64,000 nt of DNA from Candidatus Gottesmanbacteria bacterium (GCA_016186795.1 JACPKY010000001.1:1357-65356), one strand, 5' to 3'. Shown: positions 7,530 to 55,747, counted from the first letter of the stretch. The notes: generated by a model not told the origin, from the letters alone. Translations and numbers: made by a program.

Positions 7530-7979
7530 ATGAAAAGTCTGTTCAGAACTGTTGTTGCAAGTATGGTGATAGCCATAATCATTATGGGGATCGGCTATCT
7601 CCTTTACAAAACAACCATCATCGCAAATCCCCCACTAACACCAGCATCGGTATCGCTTCTGACGACCGCGACGCTGGTGGCGACAAATACCGCCATACTG
7701 GCACCAGGCCAAAAGCTGGTGCTAGAAGGGTGGTACCTAGCACCGGTTATCCTAGGAAAATTCACAGTCCGCATGTCGGCAGGATACTTCACCATTGTCG
7801 ACGATGGTGGTGTCCTGACGATCAATGAAAGGATCAGACAAATCGGCAGTGAATACGAAGAGGTGGGAAACTGGACAATCCTGATTTTCGGGAAACCTGT
7901 CCATAATCCTATCAAGGCAAGACGACTGATTGACGGAAGAATCCAGGTCATCTGGATTGGGAACTACGCAATTCACTAA
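7530..7979 (+). CDS. Hypothetical membrane-anchored protein (N-terminal TM helix)
   Basis: 149-aa ORF with a hydrophobic N-terminus (VVASMVIAIIIMGIGYLLY), bracketed by hairpins sharing GAGGGAATCTC. No recognisable domain. Confidence 0.45.
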   Translation: MKSLFRTVVASMVIAIIIMGIGYLLYKTTIIANPPLTPASVSLLTTATLVATNTAILAPGQKLVLEGWYLAPVILGKFTVRMSAGYFTIVDDGGVLTINERIRQIGSEYEEVGNWTILIFGKPVHNPIKARRLIDGRIQVIWIGNYAIH

Positions 7980-8164
7980 GTTTCACCCGGCGATGTGAGT
8001 GAGGGAATCTCCCTCACTCACATAGTATAGTTTCCCAAAGGAGAGAAAATCGCATATAAGACACCGGCATGGATTGAAAGAGAACGAAGATACTATCTTC
8101 GCAATTATCTCATTTATTCAATTTCTCTTTCCATTACCTCGGTGTCTTTTTTTTGGGAAAAATC

Positions 8165-8191
8165 TTACTCAAAATAAATTGTTGGTTCTTC
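8165..8191. repeat. 27-bp direct repeat, copy B (genuine 3' end of the ParB-like gene)
   Basis: Identical to 7198-7224. Confidence 0.8.
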
Positions 8192-8995
8192 GTAGAGGCG
8201 GAAAGGTCTTTGCGAAAGGAGTTTTTCAAGAGATTCGTTTTGCTCTTTGATGGAAGCATTTTTTGAAAAAAGGGAAAGGGGGACGTTGACATTAAGACAC
8301 CTCCGCTGTATGAGATGACGTGTAATTCCTGCTGGGAAAAGCTCTCCCTTTCTCACAACATCAACGATCTGATGGCGGGTAAAGGTGGGGAAAACAACCA
8401 TCGTATTTGTCTCCGGGTGTTCCTCAAAAAGAATCACGAAATCATGGGCATTTGGATGCTGCGGTAAAACGTCTCTGACAATTCCATCTTTATACCAATC
8501 AACCATCTTGCGAAGCGTTTGAATTTTTTCGATGATTGTCCCACCGCTATAGAGAAAATAGACTTCCCCTTTTTTGTTTAACACCGTACAGATTCGCGCC
8601 TTCCCCTCCTCTTTCACATATCGGCTCCCGACGTAGTCAAAACTCCCTTTTTGAACTTCAACATGCATGTTCTCCATCTCTTGCAAAATTTGATGGTAAT
8701 CTCCATGAAAAAGATGGAGCCAGGATGCAAGTTCTACTGCCTCCTGATCGTTATAATCAATAATCTGCACTAGAATTGAGGAAAATCCCAACATCTTAAA
8801 GGCAGAATATCGGTTCATCCCGTCAAGTTGGAGAAATTTCTTATCATCGAAAGAGGCAACAATAACTGGATTGGCGAGGAAGCCGTCTTTTTTCAACTGC
8901 TCAACGAGTGGTAATGCCCGTGACTGATCGTATTCTTCGTGGGTGAGAATATCAGAAAGTGGAACAATTTGAAGATGAAAAATATCGGTTTTCAT
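8165..8995 (-). CDS. ParB/sulfiredoxin-fold domain protein, last gene of a serine-metabolism operon (candidate SerK-like serine kinase or non-canonical phosphoserine phosphatase)
   Basis: The N-terminal motif ...NPVIVASFDDKKFLQLDGMNRYSAFKMLG resembles the ParB/Srx DGxHRxxAxxxLG core. Its start overlaps the stop of the SerA-like gene upstream. Confidence 0.45.
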   Translation of the reverse strand: MKTDIFHLQIVPLSDILTHEEYDQSRALPLVEQLKKDGFLANPVIVASFDDKKFLQLDGMNRYSAFKMLGFSSILVQIIDYNDQEAVELASWLHLFHGDYHQILQEMENMHVEVQKGSFDYVGSRYVKEEGKARICTVLNKKGEVYFLYSGGTIIEKIQTLRKMVDWYKDGIVRDVLPQHPNAHDFVILFEEHPETNTMVVFPTFTRHQIVDVVRKGELFPAGITRHLIQRRCLNVNVPLSLFSKNASIKEQNESLEKLLSQRPFRLYEEPTIYFE

Positions 8996-9897
8996 ACGCT
9001 GAATTTTGGGTTTTCCTTTTTTAACACTCTCACGACATCTTGGGCAACAGTGATACTTGCCCTTTTGAGTGCCTCTTTGGTTGCAGCACCAATATGAGGA
9101 GTCAGTATAACATTTTCAAGAGATCGCCATTTGTAATTTTCAGAAAGTGGTTCTTGCCAGAAAACATCTAACGCTGCTCCAGCAATCTTTTTCTCTGATA
9201 AAAGGGAAAAAAGCGCTCTCTCATCAACGACTCCTCCTCGAGAGATATTGAGAAAATAAGCAGTGGGTTTCATTTGACGCAAAAGCGCCTGAGTAATCAT
9301 TTCTTTTGTTTCAGAATTTAGGGCAAGATGAACCGTCACAATATCTGATTGAGAAAAAAGTTGGGAAAGCGTGCATGATTTTTTATTTTTACTAAAAATC
9401 AGAGTCTTTGCACCAAAAGCCCGAACCAATTGGTCAACTTTTTTCCCAACATATCCATATCCCAAAATCCCAACTATTTTTCCATTGAGCTCTCCACCCC
9501 AAAATTCATCTTTTAACCATAACCCATTTTTCATTGAGGAAAATGCTTTGGGAAAGTCTCGAAGAAGGGCAATAATAAGTCCTACCGTAAGCTCTGCAAC
9601 AGAAATTGAGTTGGCATCGGGTGAATTAACGACAACGATTTTTCTTCCTCGGCATTCATCGACATCGATATTGTCATACCCACTCCCGATCCGAGCTATC
9701 ACTTTCAGGTTCTTCCCGGCTGTAATCACATCTCTTGTCACTTTTGTACGACTACGCACTAACAATCCGTCATATCGAGAAATTTCCTCAAGAAGTGTTT
9801 CTGCACGTATCGTTGGCTTGTAATCAAATGCTATGTGGTTATCCGTTAAATATTCCAAAGCAGTTTCATCAATAGGATCTGAAATTAAAACATTCAT
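8992..9897 (-). CDS. D-isomer-specific 2-hydroxyacid dehydrogenase (SerA-like 3-phosphoglycerate dehydrogenase / hydroxypyruvate reductase)
   Basis: Rossmann motif GILGYGYVGKKV and catalytic-domain pattern ...SDIVTVHLALNSETKEMI...ISRGGVVDE...HIGAAT are typical of the family. Confidence 0.8.
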   Translation of the reverse strand: MNVLISDPIDETALEYLTDNHIAFDYKPTIRAETLLEEISRYDGLLVRSRTKVTRDVITAGKNLKVIARIGSGYDNIDVDECRGRKIVVVNSPDANSISVAELTVGLIIALLRDFPKAFSSMKNGLWLKDEFWGGELNGKIVGILGYGYVGKKVDQLVRAFGAKTLIFSKNKKSCTLSQLFSQSDIVTVHLALNSETKEMITQALLRQMKPTAYFLNISRGGVVDERALFSLLSEKKIAGAALDVFWQEPLSENYKWRSLENVILTPHIGAATKEALKRASITVAQDVVRVLKKENPKFSV

Positions 9898-11012
9898 TAT
9901 TTTATTTCTACGAATGACTTTTTAAGTGCATCCAACACTCCATCAATATCTTTTTCCGAAACGTATCCCATATGGGCAACTCGTATAATTTTCCCTTTCG
10001 TTTCTCCCATGCCTCCTGCAAGTTCTATGTTGTATTTTTCTCGCAAAAGGTCAACCCATCTTTTTCCATCGACATTTTCGGGAAGGGTTATTGATGTCAC
10101 TGTTGGTGAAGCATCTTCATCATCTACAAAAAGAGTAAGACCTAGTTTTTTTATTCCACTCCGCAGATGATTCATTATCTGAATGTGTCTTTGAAATATT
10201 TTTTCCCTTCCCTCTTTTTTCATCATCTCAAGCGATGTATCAAGACCAAAAAGTGTTGTCACGGCGGGGGTTGCCGGAGTTTGGAATTTTTCTGCAAATT
10301 CTTTGTACAGTGAGATGTCAAAGTAGTAGTGCGGCATTTTTGCTGTTGCATGCCTTTCCCACGCATAAGGAGAAATCGAGATCATGGCGATCCCTGGGGG
10401 AGCCATCCATGCTTTTTGGGAAGCAGTTACCAAAACATCAATTCCCAAATCGTCCATCGGTAAATTTACAGCGCCAAGGGCGCTAATACTATCAACTAAA
10501 AGGAGTGGTTTTGACCTATGAGTTTTTACAAGCGGTGCAAGTTCGGAAATCCCATTGAGTACTCCCGTTGATGTTTCATTATGAGTAAAAAAAACTCCTG
10601 CCACATTATCGTGTTTTTCCAACGTCTGGTAAACCGTGTCTTTATCAACACTTTTTCCAACCGGAATTTTTACGTGATCAACGGTTGCCCCGAAACGAAT
10701 TGCAATCTCTGCCCAGCGATTTCCAAATTCTCCGCAGGTAAAGAAAATTAACTGATCCCCGGGCGAAAAGAAGTTGGAGACTGCCGCCTCAAGTCCTCCC
10801 ATCCCCGATGAAGTCAGTAAAAAAATATCGTTTTCTGTTTGGAAAAAATAGGCAAGATTTTCCGTGATCCTTTTTTGCATTTGTTCATACTCGTGTCCAC
10901 GATGATTAATCATTTGGCGAGATGTTGCGCTAAGAACTTCAACAGGAAGAGGGGTGGGGCCTGGGATGCGAAGATTCGTCCTAGATTTTTTATTCATGAG
11001 GATATAAATCAA
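9897..11012 (-). CDS. Class-V aminotransferase (phosphoserine / serine-glyoxylate aminotransferase family)
   Basis: N-terminal LRIPGPTPLP and the PLP-lysine motif TASQKAWMAPPG are hallmarks of the AGXT/SerC class-V fold. Its stop overlaps the start of the downstream dehydrogenase gene. Confidence 0.8.
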   Translation of the reverse strand: MIYILMNKKSRTNLRIPGPTPLPVEVLSATSRQMINHRGHEYEQMQKRITENLAYFFQTENDIFLLTSSGMGGLEAAVSNFFSPGDQLIFFTCGEFGNRWAEIAIRFGATVDHVKIPVGKSVDKDTVYQTLEKHDNVAGVFFTHNETSTGVLNGISELAPLVKTHRSKPLLLVDSISALGAVNLPMDDLGIDVLVTASQKAWMAPPGIAMISISPYAWERHATAKMPHYYFDISLYKEFAEKFQTPATPAVTTLFGLDTSLEMMKKEGREKIFQRHIQIMNHLRSGIKKLGLTLFVDDEDASPTVTSITLPENVDGKRWVDLLREKYNIELAGGMGETKGKIIRVAHMGYVSEKDIDGVLDALKKSFVEIK

Positions 11013-11029
11013 TTATGAACAAAAATTTG

Positions 11030-11473
11030 TTATGCTGCAATAGCCGGAGCAACAGGAGAATCTGATTCTTCATTTGGAATCTCATTGAGCCACCCATCAA
11101 TTGTTTTTTGCGTTACTTCCCATGCTTTAGGGCTAACGGTTGATTTGTATTGTGTAAGGAGATCTTTGACAATAGTTTCCATCTCTTCTAATGCGATTTT
11201 AGCGTTGGTTTCATCATTAAAAATATCTTTTGTTACTATAGAAATTTCTTGTAGGATTTTTTGTTGATCTTTTGAATTCTGAGCAATTCCTTTTTCCAAT
11301 TCTGAAAATTTATCAGATGGAAGTTTTTCAATAAAACGCAATAAAAAACTTGTAACAAATCTTTGAGATATTTTTTCAGAAAGTTCAGCTTTCTTTTCAT
11401 CTGAAGTAGCTGAAAGCCCGATAAAAAGCCCAATTATTCTTCTTAGAACTTTCAAATAGCTCTCCAAATTCAT
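11030..11473 (-). CDS. Hypothetical protein
   Basis: 147-aa ORF translationally coupled to the two upstream genes. No motif recognised. Confidence 0.4.
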   Translation of the reverse strand: MNLESYLKVLRRIIGLFIGLSATSDEKKAELSEKISQRFVTSFLLRFIEKLPSDKFSELEKGIAQNSKDQQKILQEISIVTKDIFNDETNAKIALEEMETIVKDLLTQYKSTVSPKAWEVTQKTIDGWLNEIPNEESDSPVAPAIAA

Positions 11474-12255
11474 AATGATTGTGCTCCCCCCATTTCAGCA
11501 GAACTCAAGAACGCTCTCATTCCATCTCTGGCTTGTCTCGCCGTGTCTCGTCTTACTACCCAGGTTGCTACCCTTGGAGCTATTTTGTCGATTCCTAAAA
11601 TAGCAGCAGGTCCTGCGAATGTTGAACCGATAGCTGTTGCAAGTAAACCGATCACACCTGCTTTCGACGCTTCACCAAATAGTTCACGTGATACTTGTCC
11701 TGGACCGCCAACTGCATGAAAAACAGCATCACCAACAAAAAGTGGAGCAACACAGGAGCCCAAAGTTGTAATGACAGAACCAGCAACAAGATTTATATTA
11801 TGAATTCTACTTGTAATTTGCTTCACTGCGGCAGGTGAAATAGGAAGGGACATAGCATGCAAAAACTTTTGTAGAACCGCAGCTCTCCCTGCTTCATCCA
11901 TGAATGGATTTATTTCTGTAAGAGCCTCTTGCAGAGCTAATACTTCACGATCTGGGGGCAATTGTTCAGCTCTACTACCGGGCTTAATGAGTGGTTCTGG
12001 CTGCTTTGACGGTTTATCGCTTGGACCGCCTGTTTTTGCATCCTTGCTAAATGCTGCAGTTAAGTCACTATAAACTTTTTTTAATCCTCCTGGAACTAAG
12101 TCATTCAAACGTGCTCGAATAGTGTTTGCACTCGCAGTAAAAGCTGCCGAATCAAATGGAGGCAGAGTTGTTCTCTTTTCAGGTGGGATCGTCCTCAGTC
12201 CTACCGGTTTAAGGTCGATATTTTTGACCGGCACTGGTAATGGTGCATCGATCAT
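11470..12255 (-). CDS. Hypothetical protein (Pro-rich N-terminus, Gly/Ala-rich hydrophobic C-terminus)
   Basis: 261-aa ORF overlapping its neighbours by 4 nt on both sides. Confidence 0.45.
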   Translation of the reverse strand: MIDAPLPVPVKNIDLKPVGLRTIPPEKRTTLPPFDSAAFTASANTIRARLNDLVPGGLKKVYSDLTAAFSKDAKTGGPSDKPSKQPEPLIKPGSRAEQLPPDREVLALQEALTEINPFMDEAGRAAVLQKFLHAMSLPISPAAVKQITSRIHNINLVAGSVITTLGSCVAPLFVGDAVFHAVGGPGQVSRELFGEASKAGVIGLLATAIGSTFAGPAAILGIDKIAPRVATWVVRRDTARQARDGMRAFLSSAEMGGAQSL

Positions 12256-12256
12256 A

Positions 12257-12658
12257 TTACACTAACTTCCCTCCTGGAGTTGACTGTACTGGTTGAGGTG
12301 GGGTAGATGATTGAGCGGGTTGAGGAGATTGCTGAGGTGGAGTTGAAGAAATGACTGCCGCAGTTTCTTTTTTCAAATCTTCCAAACTTTTTTGTGTTTC
12401 TTCCAATAATTTTTCTGTTTCGGCGTCTTCTTTTTTTGTTACGTATTCATTTAAAAGGGCCGAAAGTTCGGGAAATGTTGTTATGAGTTTGGTGACTGCC
12501 TCATGTGTTTTGTCATCAGTCATACCTTCATCAAGAATGTCTGGAACTGCTTTGGAGATTTCAGCGGCACGGTCTGGAGTCAATTTTTGTGCCTCCACTT
12601 CATCAAGAAGATACATCGCAATGTCTTTCATAATCTGCGATGCAAGAGTAAGATCCAT
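12257..12658 (-). CDS. Hypothetical acidic protein with P/Q-rich C-terminus
   Basis: 133-aa ORF, first in a string of co-directional genes. Confidence 0.4.
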   Translation of the reverse strand: MDLTLASQIMKDIAMYLLDEVEAQKLTPDRAAEISKAVPDILDEGMTDDKTHEAVTKLITTFPELSALLNEYVTKKEDAETEKLLEETQKSLEDLKKETAAVISSTPPQQSPQPAQSSTPPQPVQSTPGGKLV

Positions 12659-12768
12659 ATATCCATGGTTCCATAAATTTACCGACCTGTCAAGAAGTTC
12701 CCCATTAAAAAAACCGGTGGCATACTTTCTCCTGTTTGTGGATTATCCACGTACAAAAGAGGCTGATA

Positions 12769-13185
12769 TCACGACTCTCTCTTTGCAGCCCTCTTCATCC
12801 TGTCAGGATCCAACATCCAGTAGAAGTCAATCGTCTTTGCATCAGACGCCATAAGCTTGAGCACTTTCTCGAGTTTGGCTTGGTTGATGCTCTTCGTATA
12901 GATGCCGGTGCCGCGAGGTGTCTGCATTTCTAAAACATACATTGTCGTATGTGCACGGACTCCCCGGGAAAAAGCGGGTGGATTGTATCGTCTGAAGAAG
13001 GTTTCTTTCACCTGGAACTTGCCGCCTGCCAAATCCGTACCCACGCGATATTTATGCGGGGTTGTGGGTAATCGCTGACACTCTTTGGCAGCGGCGAGTG
13101 TCGGATGCTCGGTTCCGCAGATATTGCATATCCATCCGGGAACTCGCTTTGGTTTACTTCGCTGAAGCTTTTGGAGTGCTCTCAT
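12769..13185 (-). CDS. Hypothetical basic protein with a Cys cluster (CNICGTEHPTLAAAKEC)
   Basis: 138-aa ORF; possible Zn-ribbon. Confidence 0.4.
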   Translation of the reverse strand: MRALQKLQRSKPKRVPGWICNICGTEHPTLAAAKECQRLPTTPHKYRVGTDLAGGKFQVKETFFRRYNPPAFSRGVRAHTTMYVLEMQTPRGTGIYTKSINQAKLEKVLKLMASDAKTIDFYWMLDPDRMKRAAKRES

Positions 13186-13396
13186 CTTTACTCCTTTTGG
13201 AGAATCCTATATCCTGTTCCGATCGACCTTCAATCAGCTCATTTCATGCGCACCTCCTTTGTTTCATCGAATGAGAGTTAGAAAAAGAGAAAAAGGAAAT
13301 TTTAATGTACAACTAAATTCCAGCTATTAGGAATGTTATACTTCTAGGTTATAAATTAGACCGATAGAATACTACAAAATACGCGAGGTATCAAAC

Positions 13397-14322: not shown

Positions 14323-15173
14323 CATGTTGTTCCCATTATTTCTAAGGGCATGGACTATATCTTCATCCCGATTGAATCGGGAGCCAACGTGTAGTCTCTA
14401 CGGGGTTAACAATGTAGAAGTAACGACTGAAATTTATACTTCATGCACGGTAAGATATGCGATCTCATAAGTAAGAAGAGTTTCTTTGCATTTGATTTTG
14501 AAAACCAGAGATAATTTCCTTTGCTATCATGATAAATTGTAGCTTTTAAGCCAAAATTTCTATCAAGACAGTCTTGAAGTATCTGATTTCCTGATAAACC
14601 AAATGCATATGTACTTATACGTAACCACTCTCCTTGTTTCGTTCCATTTCCATCATCCATAAACCAAACAGCCAAACTACGCGCTGATACAAGTAGCTTG
14701 TGTATATCAGATGGAATAATTTTTCTATTCCTGGTATAGAAAAGTCTTTTCCATTCGGATAATTCCGGATGATAAATCGTTCGAAGAATAATCGAATTGT
14801 TATACGGATCAAAAGTAGGACCTTTTAATGTCCATCTCTTCCAGAATCTGTAGTGCCAATCGACGTACTCCGAAAAAAGAACTGTGTGTCGAATCTTAAA
14901 TCTAGCTAACATTCCAGAACGTGATGATTCAATATGTCCATCACCAAGAAGAGTACCTATCAAAATTTCTTTCTGAATATTTGTAAGGTGTAGATTTGCT
15001 CGATACTCTTTAAGATATCTGGTGTTAGTAGCTCCGTGCGTCATTGCAACTTCCCTCGGTATTATCCTCTTAACTCAAGATAGCTTAATACTACTTCTTA
15101 AGTCAATTAGGACTTCACCGATATAGTTAGATTTTTCTAACCAATTACTTGGTTAGGTCGCTCTATCTCTAGG
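14323..15173 (-). mobile_element. Intervening sequence (probable group I intron) in 16S rRNA carrying a homing-endonuclease ORF
   Basis: It splits the conserved AAGUCGU|AACAAGGU segment. The 5' exon ends in U and the insertion ends in G, matching the group I rule. It carries the LAGLIDADG ORF on the same strand. Confidence 0.7.
14406..15044 (-). CDS. LAGLIDADG homing endonuclease (intron-encoded)
   Basis: Two LAGLIDADG-type motifs, LIGTLLGDGHIE and LAVWFMDDGNG, in a 212-aa protein lying wholly inside the 16S insertion. Confidence 0.8.
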   Translation of the reverse strand: MTHGATNTRYLKEYRANLHLTNIQKEILIGTLLGDGHIESSRSGMLARFKIRHTVLFSEYVDWHYRFWKRWTLKGPTFDPYNNSIILRTIYHPELSEWKRLFYTRNRKIIPSDIHKLLVSARSLAVWFMDDGNGTKQGEWLRISTYAFGLSGNQILQDCLDRNFGLKATIYHDSKGNYLWFSKSNAKKLFLLMRSHILPCMKYKFQSLLLHC

Positions 15174-15729
15174 ACGACTTAGTCCCCATCGCCAAGCTCG
15201 GCTTTATCCCGATAAATCGGGACATCGGCCGCCCTTGACTTTGTTGGCTTGACGGGCGGTGTGTGCAAGACCCGAGAACGTATTCACCGCGACCTGCTGA
15301 TTCGCGATTACTACCGATTCCTAGTTCATGCAGTCGAGTTGCAGACTGCAATCCCAACTGAGACGAAATTTCAGAGATTTGCTTGCTGTTGCCAGCTTGC
15401 ACCTCGCTGTTTTTCGCCATTGTAGGATGTGTGTTGCCCACGGCATAAGCGCCGTGCTGACTTGACGTCGTCCCCACCTTCCTCCCCGACAAATGTCGGA
15501 GCAGTCTCGTTTGAAATATATAACAAACGACGAGGGTTGCGCTCGTTACCCCACTTAAGGGAACACCTCACGGTACGAGCTGACGACAGCCATGCAGCAG
15601 CTTTCCTATCATCCTTGCGGATGATCCCGATTTTCATCGGGACTAAACGATAGGATGTCAAACCGTGGTGAGGTCTTTCGCTTCGTCTCGAATTAAACCA
15701 CATGCTCCACCGGTTGTGCGGGTCCCCGC

Positions 15730-15763
<34 letters not shown>

Positions 15764-16588
15764 CCCCAGGCGGGGTGCTTAACGCGTTAGCTTACGTCAC
15801 CCATTCCGCTAAAAGCGCACATTATATATGTACGCGCTTGGCGGAACGGGTAACTAGCACCCATGCGTTTACGGCTAGGACTACGCAGGTCTCTAATCTG
15901 CTTCGCTCCCCTAGCTGTCATGCCTCAGCGTCAGAAGTTGGTTGGTTTCCTGCCTTCGCTCTTGGTGTTCCTTTCGATATCAACGCATTTCACTGCTACA
16001 CCGAAAGTTCCGGAAACCCCGCCAACCCTCTAGTCTACCCATCTCTCACCCATGATCCGGTTAAGCCGAACCATTTAAGGCAAGATGCGGTAAACCGCCT
16101 ACGCGATGCTTTACGCCCAATAAATTCGGATAACGCTTGCGCCCTACGTATTACCGCGACTGCTGGCACGTAGTTAGTAGGCGCTTATTCTCCAGACCTC
16201 GATGGTCTGGCAAAAGAGGTTTACATACCGAAATACTTCATCCCTCACGTGGCGTCGCGCGGTCAGGCTTTCGCCCATTGCCGACTATTCCTGGTTGCTG
16301 CCACCCGTAGGTGTATGGCCCGTATCTCAGTGCCATTGTGGCTGGTCGTGCTCTCACACCAGCTACCCGTCATCGCCTTGGTGGGCTTTTACCCAGCCAA
16401 CTAGCTGATAGGAGTAAGGCTCCTCTCGAAGCGGGCAGTGACGCCCTTTGCTCTTGCGAGAACATGCAGTATTACCCCGTCTTTCGACGAGCTATACTTC
16501 ACTTCGAGGTAGATTCCTTACTATTACTCACCCGTCTGCCGCTGACCCCTTGCGGGGCCCGCTCGACTTGCATGCCTAAGGCACGCCA

Positions 16589-16621
<33 letters not shown>

Positions 16622-16799
16622 AATAAAATCCTACCACAACGTGCTATTCCTAATTGAGGGAAAAAAACCCGCCAACGTAGCGGGATGTTGCTCCTTATTA
16701 CAGTTGATCGTTGCCCTTATTCCTTCTTTTTGTCGTTCCCCTCTATTAAATGAATATCTTGTCTGACTATACTAAAATCCTCCTTGAGTGTCAAGGGTT

Positions 16800-18160: not shown

Positions 18161-19717
18161 CTAGTAAATAGCCGTTCCTTCGCAAGACTCTCCAATGACA
18201 GAGCCACCCCAGTCAACAAGAACAAATCCCTTGCGGTCAGTCGCTTGAAGAATTGGTGCAGGAACGGATACTGGTGCATCTAATCCTTCAAAAATAAGGC
18301 GTACGCGAAGTATCGTATCGGGATTTTCTGAAAGGGTGAGTTTCTCTTTTTCCTCAATTTCTGAAAGAGGTACAAACCCGACAAAATAATACGGCTTAGA
18401 CGTAAGTCTCGGAAGCCAATAGTCTAAAAAGTCTGCTCGTTCCTTTTCATTGAGCCCAAGTGATTTCAATATATCTGATAGTTTCGCCTCTCTTTCTTCC
18501 AGTGAGATAATCCACCCCTCTTTCGGTTTATATCCGTCATTGAGGTTTGCTTCATAGTAAAGATATGGGTACGATTGACCATCCGTTTTCAGTCTACCAT
18601 CAGGGAAACTTACGATATTCCATCCACTCCCATACTCAGGTATCGTTGTTGTGAGTTCACCCTTTGGGCTTACTTGGACTTCCAGTGCCGTTTCTTTTTC
18701 TGGATAGAGATAAATTGCGGGCTTACAAACTGGGGTAAAAACTGTCCAACTATCGACTACTCTGAATCGAAGCACTTTCAGCTGAAGTGAGGGATCTCGG
18801 CCTGAAAGAGTTGGAGGCTCCTCAGCTGATACACCATACACCCAGCTTTCTTTTGAATTCTTATCGCGAATATAAAATGCGCCAACATGGAAGTATATTT
18901 CATATATGTACCCTGTCCCATTAATCGTCGTTTCGTATTCACCGAATTTCCCAGCATCACCTTTGAGCGCTGGCTTAGGAATATTCTGCTCACTAATCTT
19001 TACAATGAAGTTTCCGTTTGGTGGAAAGGAATCAGGATCTTCCAATAGAAATTTCTCGTAATTTTCAAAATATGGATTCGTTGCTTCGTCTTTTATCACG
19101 TCCTTAAGAGGTATCGATTGAGGAGGAACGATATTCGTATTCTCCTCCGTAACTGGCACAAGGCCACCTGATTCTACACAGTTGGTAATATAGTCAGGAA
19201 GATTATCGAGGATCGTATCTCGTGCGTATATATCGAATACATAATTTTTGCCATTTTTCCCGCGAAATACTTCCACAAATTGTCGAATATCTTGTTCTTT
19301 ATAATTTGATGGTTCCCAATAAATTACTGTCCCGTCTTCCTTTTCTCCAACTATCCGGATAGCACTTCCAAGTTCGCATCTGCCGTTATACGGTGCTCCT
19401 TCCTTTTCTACTTTAAAGGGAATAAGTTCAACCCCTCGGCGTATTAATGTGTAATCACCGATAAGTCCATTCGGCGGATCGATCGGGGCATTTGTGCCAT
19501 AACACAAGGGGTGTGCGGGATTTACTACCTCGACTCGGTCAAGATCTTCTTTCGTTACAGAGAGCGTCACAGATGACTCCACCTGATAACATGACGCCTG
19601 CCAGAAATCGGAAGAAGAGGAAGGTGTCGGAGTTGCTGTAAGTGATGCGGTGGATGAAGATAATCCCCCAACGAGTGCCAAGAATGGGGCTAAGATTGTA
19701 AGGATAAAACTAAACAT
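18161..19717 (-). CDS. Secreted protein with conserved C-terminal domain shared with CDS 23133..25283
   Basis: Signal peptide and PT-rich segment. The C-terminal ~190 aa (C..PAIYLYPEKET...LGLNEKERADFLDYW...PYYFVGF...RKGFVLVDWGG) align to the C-terminus of the 716-aa protein. Confidence 0.6.
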   Translation of the reverse strand: MFSFILTILAPFLALVGGLSSSTASLTATPTPSSSSDFWQASCYQVESSVTLSVTKEDLDRVEVVNPAHPLCYGTNAPIDPPNGLIGDYTLIRRGVELIPFKVEKEGAPYNGRCELGSAIRIVGEKEDGTVIYWEPSNYKEQDIRQFVEVFRGKNGKNYVFDIYARDTILDNLPDYITNCVESGGLVPVTEENTNIVPPQSIPLKDVIKDEATNPYFENYEKFLLEDPDSFPPNGNFIVKISEQNIPKPALKGDAGKFGEYETTINGTGYIYEIYFHVGAFYIRDKNSKESWVYGVSAEEPPTLSGRDPSLQLKVLRFRVVDSWTVFTPVCKPAIYLYPEKETALEVQVSPKGELTTTIPEYGSGWNIVSFPDGRLKTDGQSYPYLYYEANLNDGYKPKEGWIISLEEREAKLSDILKSLGLNEKERADFLDYWLPRLTSKPYYFVGFVPLSEIEEKEKLTLSENPDTILRVRLIFEGLDAPVSVPAPILQATDRKGFVLVDWGGSVIGESCEGTAIY

Positions 19718-19889
19718 GGCAGTATATACTCATCATAGAATGGAATTTCAATAATAATCAATACCCCAATAACCAATTCCAATACTAACCAATACTACCA
19801 ATTCCCAATTTCCAAAAATACGTTTGGTTATTGGTCATTGGATTTTGGTGTTCATTGGAATTGGATGATTGGAAATTGATCATTAAAAA

Positions 19890-22466
19890 TTATTGTTTTT
19901 TATCCTCCTCAATCGTCATCTCTTCAACCACTTCTCCAGCTTTTTCCTCTTTCTTCTTTTTATCATCAATGGACAAAAGTGTCTCCTCCTCTTGGTCCTC
20001 AGTTGTCCCTTCTTCTTTTTCCTTCTTTTCTTCATCAAACGCTCTTTCGGCTGAAGCTGCCTTGGCTTTTTCTTGTTTTTGTTTCTTCTCATCCAGTGTC
20101 AAAAGCGTTTCCTCCTCTTCAAGAACTTCGCTCTTTCCCTCTTCTTTCGCTTTCTCTTTTAGTGCCAATTCATCAGAAATCTGTTTGGCTGCCTCAAGTT
20201 TTGCTTTCACATAGGCATAGGTTTCAACATCAGAGAACCCTCCCAAGAGAAGGAATGGTAAAATTTCTGCAATCTCGTCAAGCCCTTTTTGTTTCAGTTG
20301 CGGATTTGTACTTCCCAAAAGATGGGAAATGTTGGTAAGTTTTTTGATATCGCTTCCTAACCACTCATCTCTTGTTGATATGTTGGGTGCAAATGGAATT
20401 GGAGCTTCTCGGTAGTGCTTAAGCCACATATTTTTTACCTCCTCATAGTCTTCAAGAGAAACTTGGGTTGGAACGTCTTTTCCACCAATTGAAACTACTT
20501 TGGCAGGTTTGCCAGAAGTTGGCCTACCAAGACTGCTCGTTGCTTTCACAAAGGCAATCACTTCTTCCACCTTATCTTGACTGACCCCAGTTTTTTTCGA
20601 AATAGTCTCCGCAGTTGCTTTCTCTATCCCGAGTGATTGCAGAAGCGTAATAATTTGGGTAATCTGCTCTTCTTTGATTCCAACTTTTTGAGAAAGCGAT
20701 GTGACGGAAACGTTTCTCGCGATAACCGAAACGGATGGAACATTGACAGAAATAACTGGTCGAGTTGGTGCAAATGCTCCTTGCGTCTTTGCTCCAGCAA
20801 CTGATAGTCTTCCTCCCTCCATAACAACCTCGGAGGCAACTGTGGCGGAAGATGATGAAGATGACGTCGAAAGGACCTGTTTCGATTTCTCTGTATTGGT
20901 GGCGGTCAGTAATGTCTGTGCGACACGGTCTCCCGCTTGTGCCCGTGTTTCCAAAGCACTACGAAGCGTTGCGTATTGCTCCCTTTCTCTCGTTGAAGTA
21001 ATACGTTCTGGAGAAGAAAGCTTTTGCAGGGTTTGTTGAATTTGACTCCGTTTTTCCTGATTGAGTTCAAGTCGGGAGATATCGGAAAGCGACGAGACAG
21101 ATGTTTCAAGTGCCCGGGCAATTTCTGCAGTGTTTGTTCGGGAAATCTCTGCGATATTTTGGATATTTGTGTGTGTCACTTCTCTTATTTTTTCCTCGAC
21201 CCGTTGGCGAAACGGCAGTTCAACGGCTATACCGGTAGCTGTTGTGGGAGAAATAGGAAGTGTTGGAGTAGGTGGAGGATATTGCCGCATGCGCTCAAAG
21301 ATACTATTAAGAGTTGCGTTCCCAGCGGAAATTGCACCACAACAGTAATCTCTGAATATTCGAAGAAGGAGCCACGGCAAGATAATTGCAGTCCAGAGCA
21401 TGACAAGAGCGATAATATATTCTGCATACGTATCGACATAATTTGCCGAGTTTCCTGCAGCCAACGTTTGAGCTGGACCACCGTAGAGTATGTTTATTGC
21501 TGTTCGGTAAACTTGTCCGCTCGCGCTACACTCGGGACGGGGCATTCCTGCCCCTTGGCAGTTTGCCCGAGTAAAATCAAACGGAAAGGGAATCCCGGAG
21601 ACCCATACTTTCGTAAGTGTTGCCAAAAAAAGTGCAACCATTGGACCGTAAAATACCCACTGGAAAAATACCCCAATCCATATCCAGCCGACATTTCTGA
21701 TAAACACAAAGGGGATTAATAGTGCAAGAAATGGAGCAATAACGAGCAAAAACCAAAGGATGATTGTACGCAGAATAAGGAGAAGAGACATTATATAGTA
21801 CGTAAATGATGTTATCCGAACAATGAAAAGTGATGTATCCGCCATTTCTCTGTTTAACGGATTAATATCCCTATAGCCTACGAAGGTGGTATAGTTTTCT
21901 TCACTGTTGCCAGCCCCTGCAAAAACAACATTGAAAAGATCCTTCCCGCCAACATTTTCGATGAAAAAGCGCATGGTCACCTCGCTCAATTGAATAGTTC
22001 CCACAACCAAGACATATGAAAACGTCACAAAAAGGAGGATTCCTCCGATTCGATAAAAAAGTGAAGGAAGATTTGCTGTGGAAAAAGGTGATGCAATACC
22101 GCTAAATGTTGAACCAACGGATGCTCGTCTGGAAAGAACAATTCCTACACCAAATGCAACGATAACGAGAACGATAAATACATAAACGATGTTTCGAGAA
22201 ATAGACCAGACTTCAGCAAGAACCGGTGCTGTATGAATACCAGGATGAGTAAATACCCACCAGAGGAGTTGTCGTGCGCGATCGGCATTTTTTCCAACTG
22301 CAGTCACTTCCGAATCAAATGCCCATGTGGCTGAAGTTGTTGCCCCAAGTTGCGTGCCTTCGGCGGAAACGAACGTTGGAAAAACTGTTGCAAAAAGAAA
22401 AAAAATGAGGATAAAAATAGAGAGAATCCTAAGCGGCACTCCCCGCCTTGTGGGCAGAAAAACCAT
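19890..22466 (-). CDS. Large polytopic membrane protein with acidic/lysine-rich tandem-repeat C-terminus (possibly TrbL/VirB6-like; low confidence)
   Basis: Signal peptide, periplasmic segment, at least six hydrophobic helices, then a long low-complexity tail with repeats ETLLTLDEKKQKQEK / ETLLSIDDKKKKEEK. A nucleotide tandem repeat is visible at 19900-20130. Confidence 0.55.
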   Translation of the reverse strand: MVFLPTRRGVPLRILSIFILIFFLFATVFPTFVSAEGTQLGATTSATWAFDSEVTAVGKNADRARQLLWWVFTHPGIHTAPVLAEVWSISRNIVYVFIVLVIVAFGVGIVLSRRASVGSTFSGIASPFSTANLPSLFYRIGGILLFVTFSYVLVVGTIQLSEVTMRFFIENVGGKDLFNVVFAGAGNSEENYTTFVGYRDINPLNREMADTSLFIVRITSFTYYIMSLLLILRTIILWFLLVIAPFLALLIPFVFIRNVGWIWIGVFFQWVFYGPMVALFLATLTKVWVSGIPFPFDFTRANCQGAGMPRPECSASGQVYRTAINILYGGPAQTLAAGNSANYVDTYAEYIIALVMLWTAIILPWLLLRIFRDYCCGAISAGNATLNSIFERMRQYPPPTPTLPISPTTATGIAVELPFRQRVEEKIREVTHTNIQNIAEISRTNTAEIARALETSVSSLSDISRLELNQEKRSQIQQTLQKLSSPERITSTREREQYATLRSALETRAQAGDRVAQTLLTATNTEKSKQVLSTSSSSSSATVASEVVMEGGRLSVAGAKTQGAFAPTRPVISVNVPSVSVIARNVSVTSLSQKVGIKEEQITQIITLLQSLGIEKATAETISKKTGVSQDKVEEVIAFVKATSSLGRPTSGKPAKVVSIGGKDVPTQVSLEDYEEVKNMWLKHYREAPIPFAPNISTRDEWLGSDIKKLTNISHLLGSTNPQLKQKGLDEIAEILPFLLLGGFSDVETYAYVKAKLEAAKQISDELALKEKAKEEGKSEVLEEEETLLTLDEKKQKQEKAKAASAERAFDEEKKEKEEGTTEDQEEETLLSIDDKKKKEEKAGEVVEEMTIEEDKKQ

Positions 22467-23132: not shown

Positions 23133-25283
23133 ATGACATTGTTACCTATGGCGTCTCCTTTTTCGAAACCTTCACCCTTCCAGTCACCTCTTAGAACTGC
23201 AATCATCATTTTCGGCCTCCTCATTGGTGTTGGAGTCGGAGGGGGAGCAATTGTTACATCACTTAATTCTTCAAATCCCCAAACTTCCCCGTTATCTCAG
23301 TCACCGCTTACACAACTCATACAATCTGGTATCACACCAACCAGACCGGCAAACCCCTACAACGTTCTTTTTGCAAAATCTATGCAAGGGGCAACGGATC
23401 TTATGACAAAAGGGCCGTTTGATAACTCTTCAAAACTTGTTTCATCCTTACCTGACGCGATAAAACATATCAATTTCATTTCTCCATCTGAAATCATTTT
23501 CATCGATGAACTGAATGACAATGAGCATGGGAAGTCCATTAAGAAATATAATAGTGAGGATGGTTCAACGACAACACTTGTTGCCCTTGGACAAAGCACG
23601 TGGGGAATAGATGATGTCGTTTCTTCTCCCGATGGCACATACATCGCCTGGTGGGAAGTACAATTTACGAACCAAAATCAGCTTCTGGGAGGATTTTCCC
23701 GCGTTTTTGTGAAAAAAATTCTCCCTTCTGCTTCTGCCGCGATTCAACTTACCAATGAAGTTGCAACAGAGACTACTCCTCTTCACTATCCTCTCTTTTT
23801 CGACAGGAACAATAGACTCTATCTCGATACGTTTATACCAAATGGCGGAGGATTTTATCTCGGACTTTCGATCGTTGAAAATCCAGGAGCCAATGTTTTC
23901 ACTCCAATTCCAGACATGAAAGACGGGGACTATCTCTCTGATCCAGAACTTTCTCCTGATGGAACGAAAATTCTCTTCACCGCATATGATGGATCAGCTT
24001 CCTTCAAGTACACTTCAATAAGTGGACTTTCCGTCAACCGTACCTCAAATATCAACCCTAATCTCCTTGTGGTGAAAGATCTGACAACTGGTACAAAGCA
24101 GACTCTCCTCGGTTCATCAAATGGAGCACAGTACGTAAACCCGAAATGGTCAAATGATGGAACAATAGTAAGTTTCTTGGGATACCATCTCACTAGCCCC
24201 ACATCATCTCAGTACGACGGTGTATTTACGTTTCGTCTTACGGATGCATCGCCTCAGAAGGTAAATGGCATTACCTCATCACGGGTAAGACTTCTGTCAC
24301 TTACTCATACCGAACTCATTTGGGGAAAACCAACATCTGAGGTTGGAAGTTTAGGCCCAAAGTACGCTCCAATTCTTAGCCAAATCAATACAACAGATAT
24401 CATTTCAAACCAAACAACATCAATTCTTGCTGAACCTCTTATTCAGTATGTCAATATTTCTCCCGGAAACATATCGGGGAAAGAGGTAGCACAAAGTAAT
24501 AATTCAATACAATTTTCCTCCTTTAAACCAAAAATAGTTGCACAAAAAAGACAAGATCAGCAGAATGATCCACAAACTACTCCCAGTGTCACTCCAACTG
24601 GAGGGCCCACCGTAACTCCCGGGCCAACTTCAACTCCCGGACCATCACCTACTCCATGGACCAAACCGAAGTGCCGCGATTACTGTCAAATTCCAGAGCC
24701 AACCCCCCTCCCCCCTTCCTGCGTTGACTTCTCAAAATGTTATGATTCTCCGCTTTACCTCTATCCACAAACAGAAACGAACGTGAAGATACAAGTCTCT
24801 GGCGCAACACTTTTTTCTGACATTCCTGAAATGGAAAACAATTCATGGAACGTCAAAGCATACCCTGATGGAAAAATTAGAAGTCGCGGGGGCGAGTATT
24901 CATCAATTAACTATAGTTACATTGGAGATCCTCAACCCCCACCTCCATATGGCACTGTCGTTGATAAGAAAGATCTAGCAATTACTCTTAAGCGGTTTGC
25001 AGAGAAACTTGGTCTCAATGAGAAGGAGACAAACGATTTTGTTTCGTTTTGGACAAATACTCTTCCCACCACGCCATATTATCTTGTAAGTTTCTACCCA
25101 AAAGAGACTGCGCAAAAAATCATCCAGTATAGCATACGTCCTGAACCAAACTCATTTTTGCAAATTATCATGTACTTTAAACCACTTGAGTACAAAGTGA
25201 AACTTCCTCCTCCAACCTTTCCCAAATTTGAACGCAAAGGGTTTGTTGCCGTTGATTGGAGCGGTGTAGTTGATGATAAATAA
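23133..25283 (+). CDS. Secreted TolB-like (PD40 beta-propeller repeat) protein with PT-linker and conserved C-terminal domain
   Basis: PD40-like repeats (SPDGTYIAWWEV, SPDGTKILFTAYDGS, WSNDGTIVSF). A PT-rich linker precedes a C-terminal domain homologous to that of CDS 18161..19717. Confidence 0.65.
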   Translation: MTLLPMASPFSKPSPFQSPLRTAIIIFGLLIGVGVGGGAIVTSLNSSNPQTSPLSQSPLTQLIQSGITPTRPANPYNVLFAKSMQGATDLMTKGPFDNSSKLVSSLPDAIKHINFISPSEIIFIDELNDNEHGKSIKKYNSEDGSTTTLVALGQSTWGIDDVVSSPDGTYIAWWEVQFTNQNQLLGGFSRVFVKKILPSASAAIQLTNEVATETTPLHYPLFFDRNNRLYLDTFIPNGGGFYLGLSIVENPGANVFTPIPDMKDGDYLSDPELSPDGTKILFTAYDGSASFKYTSISGLSVNRTSNINPNLLVVKDLTTGTKQTLLGSSNGAQYVNPKWSNDGTIVSFLGYHLTSPTSSQYDGVFTFRLTDASPQKVNGITSSRVRLLSLTHTELIWGKPTSEVGSLGPKYAPILSQINTTDIISNQTTSILAEPLIQYVNISPGNISGKEVAQSNNSIQFSSFKPKIVAQKRQDQQNDPQTTPSVTPTGGPTVTPGPTSTPGPSPTPWTKPKCRDYCQIPEPTPLPPSCVDFSKCYDSPLYLYPQTETNVKIQVSGATLFSDIPEMENNSWNVKAYPDGKIRSRGGEYSSINYSYIGDPQPPPPYGTVVDKKDLAITLKRFAEKLGLNEKETNDFVSFWTNTLPTTPYYLVSFYPKETAQKIIQYSIRPEPNSFLQIIMYFKPLEYKVKLPPPTFPKFERKGFVAVDWSGVVDDK

Positions 25284-42109: not shown

Positions 42110-42406
42110 ATGAAATATATTCTGCCACTCCTTTTTATTATTTGCATCGGAATTGTTTTACAAATTCATCCGGTAAAAGTCTCTCCTGCAAATGCTCAGC
42201 AACCAACATTTGGTCCCACGTGTGAAGCAGGTACAACTCCTGGGGTAGCTGCAACAACGTGTCCGACAAATACAGAAAAACCCACAGCTGTACCAAAAAT
42301 ACCGGTAACAGGGACAGGATCAACTCTTGTCATGGCGCTTCTCTCAGGTGGAATTTTTTTGGCAATTCTGGGAGTGGGGACGGTTGCTTTTACTGTGTCA
42401 CGGTAA
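42110..42406 (+). CDS. Small (98-aa) surface protein: signal peptide + conserved PTFGPTCxAGxTPG...TCPTNT Cys module + IPVTG sorting-like signal + TM + basic tail
   Basis: The C-terminal module is nearly identical in pattern to that of CDS 16800..17567. Confidence 0.5.
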   Translation: MKYILPLLFIICIGIVLQIHPVKVSPANAQQPTFGPTCEAGTTPGVAATTCPTNTEKPTAVPKIPVTGTGSTLVMALLSGGIFLAILGVGTVAFTVSR

Positions 42407-55685: not shown

Positions 55686-55744
55686 AAGGGGAAGGAGATT
55701 ATTGATTGAGTGAAAACCTTCCCCAAAGGGGAAGGTTTTTTTTG
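55686..55744 (+). promoter_or_regulatory. Putative attenuator: GGGGAAGG (55688-55695) can pair with CCTTCCCC (55717-55724) or that CCTTCCCC pairs with a second GGGGAAGG (55728-55735) to form a terminator hairpin followed by T8
   Basis: The sequence AAGGGGAAGG...AACCTTCCCCAAAGGGGAAGGTTTTTTTTTG lies immediately 5' of the 870-aa gene. Confidence 0.45.
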
Positions 55745-55747
55745 TGC

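Follow-up and report, generated by a model that had tools for sequence, protein, structure and literature searches.

A putative SbnI/SerK-type serine kinase encoded with a short SerA-type dehydrogenase and a class-V aminotransferase in Gottesmanbacteria and related bacteria

What is the function of a ParB-like protein encoded in an apparent serine-metabolism operon that lacks a phosphoserine phosphatase? This question is raised by positions 8165-11012 of a 64,000-nucleotide stretch of DNA from a Candidatus Gottesmanbacteria bacterium (GCA_016186795.1 JACPKY010000001.1:1357-65356; the whole stretch is referred to here as the window), where an aminotransferase, a SerA-like dehydrogenase and a protein of 276 amino acids (aa) are encoded in succession. 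The original prediction for this locus placed the 276-aa protein, which carries a ParB/sulfiredoxin (Srx)-like motif, in the role of the missing phosphatase SerB. From the analysis described here, the balance tips slightly in favour of reading the full locus as a serine/phosphoserine/3-phosphoglycerate shunt that employs a kinase of the SbnI/SerK type.

The three genes are located head to tail on the minus strand, in the order aminotransferase, dehydrogenase, 276-aa protein. The first encodes a class-V (AGXT/SGAT-type) pyridoxal-phosphate (PLP) enzyme of 366 aa (9897..10997); a TTG at 11012 would lengthen its open reading frame (ORF) (9897..11012, 371 aa), and the ATG at 10997 is the start picked by gene callers on identical public contigs, which gives 366 aa and not 371. 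The second encodes a short SerA-type dehydrogenase of 301 aa without an ACT domain (8992..9897), and the third (8165..8995) encodes a member of the SbnI/SerK family, proposed to be a nucleoside triphosphate (NTP)-dependent free L-serine kinase. When the sequence is read directly, both junctions overlap: the aminotransferase stop and the dehydrogenase start share one base, at 9897, within TAATG (9895..9899), and the dehydrogenase stop and the kinase start share four bases in ATGA (8992..8995). These overlaps, which agree with the predicted layout of three coupled genes, make translational coupling plausible.

A protein identical to the 276-aa product is deposited at NCBI as 'ParB N-terminal domain-containing protein [Candidatus Gottesmanbacteria bacterium]'. 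The ParB/Srx-like motif expected in its N-terminal part is indeed present, as DGMNRYSAFKMLG at residues 58-70; this resemblance alone is weak, since the Pfam ParB_N model matches with an E value of 0.0067 and 16.9 bits, under its cut-off of 26.3 bits. The resemblance to serine kinases over the whole length, in contrast, is well outside chance: the NCBIfam model of SbnI (NF033589) matches residues 7-262 (E 6.5e-26, 91.2 bits) and that of SerK (NF053625) residues 11-241 (E 6.6e-17, 61.5 bits), and among the solved structures of the PDB the protein finds SbnI and SerK by sequence with E values of 1e-16 and 1e-7, respectively. An AlphaFold2 model, computed without templates from 60 family members, reached a mean predicted local distance difference test (pLDDT) value of 91.7. 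Its top Foldseek matches are the SbnI structures 5uje, 5ujd and 6nr6 (E 9e-18 to 5e-17, TM 0.66-0.81, 262-279 columns), followed by 1vk1, a SerK-like Pyrococcus protein of unknown function, and then by SerK 5x0b (E approximately 1e-15 to 1e-16); structures of ParB, Noc, PadC and sulfiredoxin cover only some 80-86 N-terminal columns of the model. The two-domain architecture of SbnI and SerK, in which a ParB/Srx-like N-domain precedes a family-specific C-domain, is matched by the 276-aa protein over its full length, and what profile and structure searches return is a fold of the SbnI/SerK type and not an unrelated one. No HAD match was found in Pfam or NCBIfam, no helix-turn-helix or other DNA-binding domain by Pfam or fold search, and no match to Pfam DUF1015 at E values up to 1. 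A true ParB partition role was also considered and rejected, given that Pfam and the fold search reveal neither a DNA-binding nor a dimerisation domain, that ParB_N scores below its cut-off and that the box reads DGMNR, not GERRxR.

At the residue level, the resemblance extends to the presumed active site. The N-terminal ParB/Srx-like domain, predicted to bind the nucleotide, comprises approximately residues 1-97 (8705..8995, with a boundary that fold comparison places only roughly; this and the following features are on the minus strand) and contains His19-Glu20 (8936-8941) and Asp58-Gly-Met-Asn-Arg62 (8810-8824). In the alignments, Glu20 corresponds to SbnI Glu20 and to SerK Glu30, the residue altered in the E30A and E30Q crystal entries of the PDB; Asp58 corresponds to SbnI Asp58 and SerK Asp69, and Arg62 to the Arg of the DGxHR loop. 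On the basis of those two entries and of the literature, we take the Glu and the Asp to be catalytic. The C-terminal domain (approximately residues 98-276; 8168..8704), which aligns with the SbnI and SerK structures only, contains PAGITRH (8315-8335), Arg232 and the invariant tail Arg266-x-Tyr268-x-Glu270 (8186-8200).

The same residues characterise a large protein family. A profile of 60 members, run against 1.84 billion representative proteins, recovered 1,803 clusters (50% identity) at E ≤0.001 and 244 at E ≤1e-30, mostly of 270-300 aa; the family proteins are small and soluble-looking. Among 130 representatives with a pairwise identity of at most 50%, 20 positions are 92-100% conserved: H19, E20, R26, P43, D58, G59, R62, Q77, W92, H94, Y168, R174, P221, G223, T225, R226, R232, R266, Y268 and E270. 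Nearly all of them are also found in SbnI, an experimentally proven kinase. E20 and D58 are 99-100% conserved both in these representatives and in 67 dehydrogenase-kinase fusions (see below), and P221, G223, T225, R226, R232, R266, Y268 and E270 are kept in both sets as well. This describes a large, uncharacterised subfamily of the SbnI/SerK fold in which the catalytic apparatus of the proven serine kinases appears to be retained. As far as sequence comparison can tell, the 276-aa protein is a clear SbnI/SerK homologue that belongs to a separate subfamily and is an equivalog of neither. The original prediction had also mentioned a bacterial SerK-like kinase, and this part of it fares well: with full-length profile, structure and fold matches and with Glu20 and Asp58 in place, we hold it quite likely that the protein is a free serine kinase of the SbnI/SerK family.

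A second line of evidence is provided by gene fusions. The kinase domain is joined to the end of a SerA-like dehydrogenase in at least 67 distinct proteins of 570-620 aa; two of them carry the label Chloroflexi, and some others are listed by JGI as 'phosphoglycerate dehydrogenase-like'. For the dehydrogenase half, the next-best matches are canonical SerA proteins of 527 aa that possess ACT (42-49% identity), and all the kinase motifs listed above are intact in the 67 of them, at pairwise identities between kinase domains as low as 23%. Nine fusion loci were examined, and in four (L038, L122, L125 and L127) a class-V aminotransferase is encoded directly upstream. Just upstream in L038 and L125 are also pgk, the gluconeogenic fructose-bisphosphatase gene glpX and an aldolase gene, and the neighbours in L122 and L127 encode an aldehyde:ferredoxin oxidoreductase, peptidases and amino-acid enzymes. 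Taken together, the fusions are strong evidence for a functional link between dehydrogenase and kinase.

Such a link could in principle be regulatory instead of catalytic, with the SbnI-like protein sensing serine and controlling the short dehydrogenase, as ACT would, or acting as a DNA-binding regulator in the manner of SbnI. The position of the kinase-like domain in the fusions, C-terminal as ACT is in canonical SerA, would fit this idea, as would the lack of ACT in the trio dehydrogenase, the stoichiometric co-production suggested by the ATGA overlap and the annotation of SbnI as a bifunctional regulator and kinase. However, Glu20, Asp58, Arg62 and the rest of the active site do not vary in the family or in the fusions, even at 23% identity, and Pfam and the fold search found no helix-turn-helix or DNA-binding domain, so that a mainly regulatory partner is considered highly improbable. 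The kinase fold has also been joined to a different partner: in Herpetosiphonaceae, an 856-aa protein (P0280; L041:780-3350, plus strand) consists of a class I/II aminotransferase fused to an SbnI-like kinase domain, and a gene for a ParA-like ATPase adjoins it.

The enzymes encoded with the kinase indicate which pathway it may serve. The second gene, as had been predicted, encodes a SerA-like D-2-hydroxyacid dehydrogenase, with Pfam matches to 2-Hacid_dh_C (8.3e-51) and 2-Hacid_dh (3.6e-36) and a best NCBIfam match to the phosphoglycerate dehydrogenase (PGDH) model TIGR01327 (3.1e-92, 310 bits), compared to 196 bits for glyoxylate reductase. The match covers positions 1-305 of the 525-position model and stays under the cut-off of 454 bits because the ASB and ACT domains of the full-length model are absent from the 301-aa protein. 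Among solved structures, it is closest to the short PGDH of Pyrococcus horikoshii (1wwk, 2.4e-65), to human PHGDH and to 2ekl, a PGDH from Sulfolobus. The motifs NISRGG, WQEP and TPHIGA align with R236, E265 and H283 of human PHGDH, which we take to be the catalytic residues, and the Arg/Glu/His set is therefore kept; likewise, R48, R69 and K129 align with R54, R75 and R135 of the human enzyme, presumably those that bind the phosphate. Judged by these comparisons, the dehydrogenase is nearest to genuine 3-phosphoglycerate dehydrogenases, with the anion-binding residues kept. PLP synthesis of the PdxB/SerC type was set aside, as the dehydrogenase scores 114 bits for PdxB and 310 for PGDH.

The first gene also agrees with its predicted class. 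Its product matches Pfam Aminotran_5 (2.6e-31) and contains an SQK motif whose Lys195 (codon at 10413..10415, minus strand) is the predicted PLP-binding lysine, an assignment that we make by analogy with the SQK lysine of AGXT-family enzymes. Among solved structures, 2dr1 (Pyrococcus PH1308, 4e-62) ranks first, ahead of serine-glyoxylate and alanine-glyoxylate aminotransferases, and no NCBIfam model reaches its cut-off. From the gene context, the enzyme is proposed to be a phosphoserine:2-oxoglutarate aminotransferase. Its nearest characterised relatives, the serine-pyruvate, serine-glyoxylate and alanine-glyoxylate aminotransferases, are also what would be expected of a non-phosphorylated route, offered as a second possibility in the original prediction, in which serine would be converted through hydroxypyruvate to D-glycerate and the ParB-fold protein would be a new type of glycerate kinase; hydroxypyruvate reductases, moreover, belong to the 2-hydroxyacid dehydrogenase family. 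The dehydrogenase of this locus nevertheless resembles PGDH, both in its profile scores and in its best solved relatives, and keeps R48, R69 and K129; many other bacteria possess this dehydrogenase as a fusion with the kinase domain; the conserved pocket residues of the 276-aa protein are common to serine kinases; and canonical SerB::SerA genes adjoin the trio in relatives. In view of this, the non-phosphorylated route is regarded as extremely unlikely.

The association of the three genes is not confined to this genome. In a survey of one genome per GTDB species, 34 loci were found, all from Gottesmanbacteria, Roizmanbacteria or unclassified Patescibacteria, some of them under wrong record titles, and 29 of the 34 have enough upstream sequence to be informative. 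The order aminotransferase-dehydrogenase-kinase on one strand is present in 27 of these 29 species-level loci. The exceptions are L006, with dehydrogenase and kinase and a contig end where the aminotransferase is expected, and L017 from Roizmanbacteria, where only the kinase is left and the synteny is otherwise kept. On either side of the trio there are housekeeping genes that vary with the lineage (recA, recX, RNase Y, HU, mscL, smpB), and no other conserved metabolic neighbour was found in the Gottesmanbacteria and Roizmanbacteria loci; since the flanks differ between the two lineages, the trio is the conserved unit. The non-fused trio is also found in a distant lineage (L040). In L017, an 833-aa ORF on the opposite strand (L017:6839-9340, minus), which contains intein-splicing and LAGLIDADG domains, occupies the place of the aminotransferase and dehydrogenase. 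Two other loci contain a gene that tblastn recovers in two pieces in different frames, namely the dehydrogenase of L022 (approximately 9138-9993) and the kinase of L036 (approximately 10001-10856), which may be frameshifted pseudogenes or assembly errors.

Is the 276-aa protein, then, a substitute for SerB? The absence of canonical SerB from the operon was correctly noted, as there is no HAD/SerB gene among the three, and tblastn found no SerB-like stretch in the 64-kb window. Nor did a search with the SerB-like domain of locus L006 (see below) give a hit on a contig of 193,780 bp, the length associated with the protein of the window. An operon with SerA-like and aminotransferase genes and without a HAD phosphatase is what suggests the replacement of SerB, in which the route would be biosynthetic, from 3-phosphoglycerate to serine, and the ParB-fold protein would act as a backward kinase (phosphoserine + ADP/AMP to serine + ATP/ADP) or as a new phosphatase. 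It could further be supported by the DUF1015 protein 'SerBK', which has a remotely SbnI-like fold, shares operons with serA and serC and complements an E. coli serB mutant, and by a His-to-Asn exchange in the nucleotide loop of the 276-aa protein, which could signal altered chemistry.

The relatives argue against such a replacement. Beside the trio, a SerB-like domain is encoded in five of the 34 loci of these members of the candidate phyla radiation (CPR), namely L006, L012, L024, L028 and L029, and two distinct serine-synthesis fusion architectures can be recognised there by means of NCBIfam models, one with the SerB-like HAD-IB domain behind a SerA-like dehydrogenase and the other with it in front of an E. 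coli-type SerA with ACT. The first, of 597 aa, is encoded on the minus strand at L006:221-2014 and L012:3239-4969; its dehydrogenase part matches TIGR01327 with 324 bits, and its C-terminal HAD-IB domain, with the motif DCDST, has serB (TIGR00338, 99 bits) as its best match. This gene adjoins the dehydrogenase-kinase pair on the opposite strand, and in L012 it lies between aminotransferase and dehydrogenase. Free-standing proteins homologous to its HAD domain carry the annotation phosphoserine phosphatase, including one from a CPR bacterium (CPR3). The second, of 630-641 aa, is encoded at L024:10830-12755 and L029:2644-4536 (both plus strand) and in L028; the HAD part, with the motif DFDST, matches TIGR00338 with 76 bits, and the SerA part matches the E. 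coli-type, ACT-containing model NF008759 with 633 bits (cut-off 404). In L024 and L028, this SerB::SerA(ACT) gene follows the kinase on the same strand after a gap of about 10 nt, within a cluster at approximately 7900-12755 (plus strand).

Two consequences can be drawn from these loci. In L024 and L028, where the clusters hold the canonical first and third steps, no aminotransferase other than the class-V enzyme is encoded, and this supports phosphoserine as the substrate of that enzyme. Moreover, as kinase and SerB-like phosphatase coexist in the five relatives, the kinase is no stand-in for SerB in them. The replacement of SerB is also disfavoured by energetics, since the reverse serine kinase reaction has an estimated equilibrium constant of ~4e-4, which cellular ATP/ADP ratios would worsen, and, combined with an unfavourable PGDH step, would make the whole route uphill according to established thermodynamics; in addition, the residues common to the proven kinase SbnI are all invariant. 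The replacement that headed the original prediction is thus not borne out and is judged improbable. It is equally doubtful, in more general terms, that an SbnI-like protein performs the last step of serine synthesis physiologically, be it by returning the phosphoryl group to a nucleotide, in a substrate-level phosphorylation, or by hydrolysis on a ParB/Srx fold. If it did, a large, widespread family mis-annotated as 'ParB' would fill the recurrent missing-SerB gap of many genomes; in a variant of this idea, the kinase domain may have replaced ACT as the serine sensor of SerA, in the fused proteins as well as in the coupled pair.

For the three genes, we prefer the opposite course, the serine-kinase shunt. 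The 276-aa protein would phosphorylate the hydroxyl of serine at the expense of a nucleotide, probably ATP or another NTP, giving phosphoserine, with Glu20 as the base and the Asp58-Gly-x-Asn-Arg62 loop holding the nucleotide phosphates. The class-V aminotransferase would convert phosphoserine and 2-oxoglutarate to 3-phosphohydroxypyruvate and glutamate, and the short, unregulated SerA-type dehydrogenase would reduce 3-phosphohydroxypyruvate with NADH to 3-phosphoglycerate. The net flow from serine to 3-phosphoglycerate would represent an assimilation of serine into glycolysis/gluconeogenesis. That the genes form a phosphorylated module connecting serine and 3-phosphoglycerate via O-phosphoserine is considered likely. 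The direction of the flux is a closer call, with the odds about even or inclining very slightly to 3-phosphoglycerate formation. The PGDH reaction favours 3-phosphoglycerate, and this equilibrium, the small constant of the reverse kinase reaction, the coexistence with SerB-like domains in relatives and the gluconeogenic neighbours at two fusion loci all favour that direction, as do the aldehyde:ferredoxin oxidoreductase, peptidase and amino-acid enzyme genes at two other fusion loci and the precedents in Desulfurococcales and T. kodakarensis.

Phosphoserine itself might also be the wanted product, drawn from 3-phosphoglycerate and from free serine and supplied, for example, to a phosphoserine-dependent cysteine synthase. 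T. kodakarensis feeds cysteine synthesis via phosphoserine using a SerK and SerA route, and SbnI provides phosphoserine to SbnA. Within the wider family, a kinase homologue adjoins a gene for CysM and/or a MoeB/MoeZ-like adenylyltransferase in five high-GC metagenome loci (L043, L047, L068, L076 and L091). CysM and MoeB/MoeZ are components of a phosphoserine-dependent cysteine route, the mycobacterial CysM-CysO-MoeZ system, and their vicinity suggests a supply of phosphoserine for cysteine synthesis in those high-GC organisms. However, the homologues linked to CysM come from another subgroup, of high GC and unlinked to dehydrogenase or aminotransferase, and none of the 34 CPR loci has a cysM, cysK or sbnA-like gene at a distance of up to 10 kb from the trio, nor was one seen in the part of the window that was sampled. 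For the trio, phosphoserine supply is rated as an unlikely purpose.

The metagenome scan that yielded these loci was run from a narrower alignment; the alignment of the very diverse family lacked a sufficiently conserved stretch. The largest environmental subgroup, to which the five CysM- or MoeB/MoeZ-linked loci belong, is a high-GC one with the motif VVLDGANR, in which an aminotransferase gene was found beside the kinase in none of 80 loci and a weak dehydrogenase paralogue downstream in only two. Linkage to SerA and an aminotransferase throughout the family, which had been expected, is ruled out by these 80 loci. A SufT-like gene adjoins other high-GC family members.

Several observations weigh against the proposed shunt from serine to 3-phosphoglycerate. 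The 276-aa protein misses the equivalog cut-offs by far (91.2 bits against 350 for SbnI and 61.5 against 380 for SerK). The signature His of the DGxHR loop (SbnI H61, SerK H72) is Asn61 in this protein; in the family, Asn predominates at position 61, Thr is frequent, His is rare and Ser also occurs, and most of the dehydrogenase-kinase fusions have Thr. Because of this change from His to Asn or Thr, the handling of the nucleotide may differ. With regard to the aminotransferase, the best score with any SerC model (TIGR01364, TIGR01366, NF003764) is 50.7 bits against a cut-off of 401, and the protein is closest to the serine/alanine-glyoxylate aminotransferases, that is, to the AGXT/SGAT branch of class V. 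The substrates of all three enzymes are assigned by homology and context, and the evidence on direction comes from a handful of loci of other lineages. The kinase and the SerB-like phosphatase are apparently co-transcribed in L024 and L028, which would create a futile cycle unless regulated. Finally, the complementation of E. coli serB by the DUF1015 protein with its remotely SbnI-like fold implies that kinase-like proteins can support serine synthesis.

The surroundings of the operon in the window were also inspected. A scan for terminator-like sites detected a 14-bp perfect hairpin at 7993..8023, between the kinase gene and a convergent gene at 7530..7979 (plus strand). It is a candidate two-way terminator whose membership of the operon is uncertain; promoter- and terminator-like sites in 7900-13300 are in total no more numerous than the shuffled expectation, and the hairpin is thus weak evidence. 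The aminotransferase gene is immediately preceded, on its own strand (11030-12658, minus), by three small ORFs without a family match, two of which overlap by 4 nt; in other species they are not conserved at this position. A complete 16S rRNA gene is located at 15107..16627 (minus strand; Rfam 1276 bits), and no 23S rRNA was found in the whole 64 kb. An ORF for a LAGLIDADG_2 homing endonuclease (14406..15044, minus strand; Pfam 9.8e-35) starts about 60 nt past the 16S 3' end and is free-standing, outside any rRNA intron. An origin from the CPR, indicated by the identical NCBI protein, fits the composition of the window, which has this 16S rRNA gene, 40-43% GC and many ORFs without any family match, among them very large ones of 518-870 aa with no Pfam match at E ≤0.001 (564-2681, 18161-22466, 23133-25283, 42390-44084, 55710-58322 and 62002-63975); many of these have hydrophobic N-termini, typical of uncharacterised CPR surface proteins.

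In the searchable literature, no description was found of this SbnI/SerK subfamily, of the CPR operon or of the dehydrogenase-kinase fusions, and nothing relevant on SerK in Patescibacteria or Chloroflexi or on serine metabolism in Gottesmanbacteria or Roizmanbacteria; the main text of a 2025 survey of ParB-fold fusions makes no mention of dehydrogenase or aminotransferase fusions. If the assignment proposed here is correct, many of the 'ParB N-terminal domain-containing' or 'hypothetical' proteins of Patescibacteria, Chloroflexota and other uncultured bacteria are most likely small-molecule kinases with serine as their substrate. A serine-kinase route that connects serine with 3-phosphoglycerate has so far been documented only in hyperthermophilic archaea; it would be extended to bacteria, and CPR organisms, which have very few metabolic options, would possess a defined way to use serine obtained from a host or from the environment. 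The family is also of interest for the question, posed by DUF1015 SerBK, whether enzymes with a kinase fold can substitute for SerB.

Among known systems, the closest is the operon of Desulfurococcales, and the closest characterised protein is SbnI. Clusters of serK, PGDH and aminotransferase genes in Desulfurococcales are reportedly also the subject of a 2021 article by Mori in J Bacteriol. In these archaea, as in the present locus, a ParB-annotated free serine kinase, a short PGDH and an aminotransferase are encoded in a cluster or operon. Such clusters are known from Staphylothermus marinus and Desulfurococcus mucosus, and their proposed role is the conversion of serine to 3-phosphoglycerate (Makino 2016, PMC5120207), by way of phosphoserine and 3-phosphohydroxypyruvate, which is the role proposed here too. 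The trio is thus a bacterial counterpart of the archaeal pathway, and as the biochemistry that it implies is already known from archaea, it does not constitute a new kind of system. The differences lie in the host, a mesophilic CPR bacterium with a tiny genome; in the kinase, which is nearer to SbnI than to SerK (91 versus 61 bits), has Asn in place of the signature His and carries a conserved C-terminal tail; and in the fusion of dehydrogenase and kinase found in other bacteria.

SbnI, from Staphylococcus aureus and S. pseudintermedius (5uje, 5ujd, 6nr6), is an ATP-dependent free serine kinase and a regulator of staphyloferrin B synthesis. It is the best match to the 276-aa protein in sequence and fold over both domains, and shares with it Glu20, Asp58, Arg62, Gln77, Trp92, His94, PxGxTR, Arg232 and the C-terminal R-x-Y-x-E. 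Nonetheless, identity is 22-24%, with a score far below the NCBIfam equivalog cut-off, SbnI also regulates transcription, and its context is a siderophore cluster with SbnA and SbnB, in contrast to the SerA-type dehydrogenase and aminotransferase found here. Tk-SerK from Thermococcus kodakarensis (5x0b and others), an ADP-dependent free serine kinase, folds into the same two domains and also has the catalytic Glu (E30) and the DG..R loop; it links serine to phosphoserine, cysteine and 3-phosphoglycerate, and the SerK route has been proposed to run from serine to 3-phosphoglycerate in that organism. Its identity to the 276-aa protein is 16-19%, its phosphate donor is ADP, and its gene does not form an operon with serA or an aminotransferase gene in Thermococcus.

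Two further systems are related by function. DUF1015 'SerBK' of Clostridioides difficile, C. botulinum and Bacteroides thetaiotaomicron, which replaces serB on genetic evidence (GapMind 2026 preprint), has an SbnI-related kinase-like fold and is encoded with serA and serC in genomes or operons without SerB. It belongs, however, to a different family, the published likeness between DUF1015 and SbnI is structural only, and the genetic evidence on serB concerns DUF1015 alone. The canonical SerA-SerC-SerB pathway, finally, has the same intermediates and a SerA-type first enzyme, and in five relatives a SerB-like domain fused to SerA is encoded beside the trio; compared with it, the trio has an AGXT-type class-V aminotransferase and not SerC, a dehydrogenase without ACT, and a third enzyme with a kinase fold in place of a HAD phosphatase.

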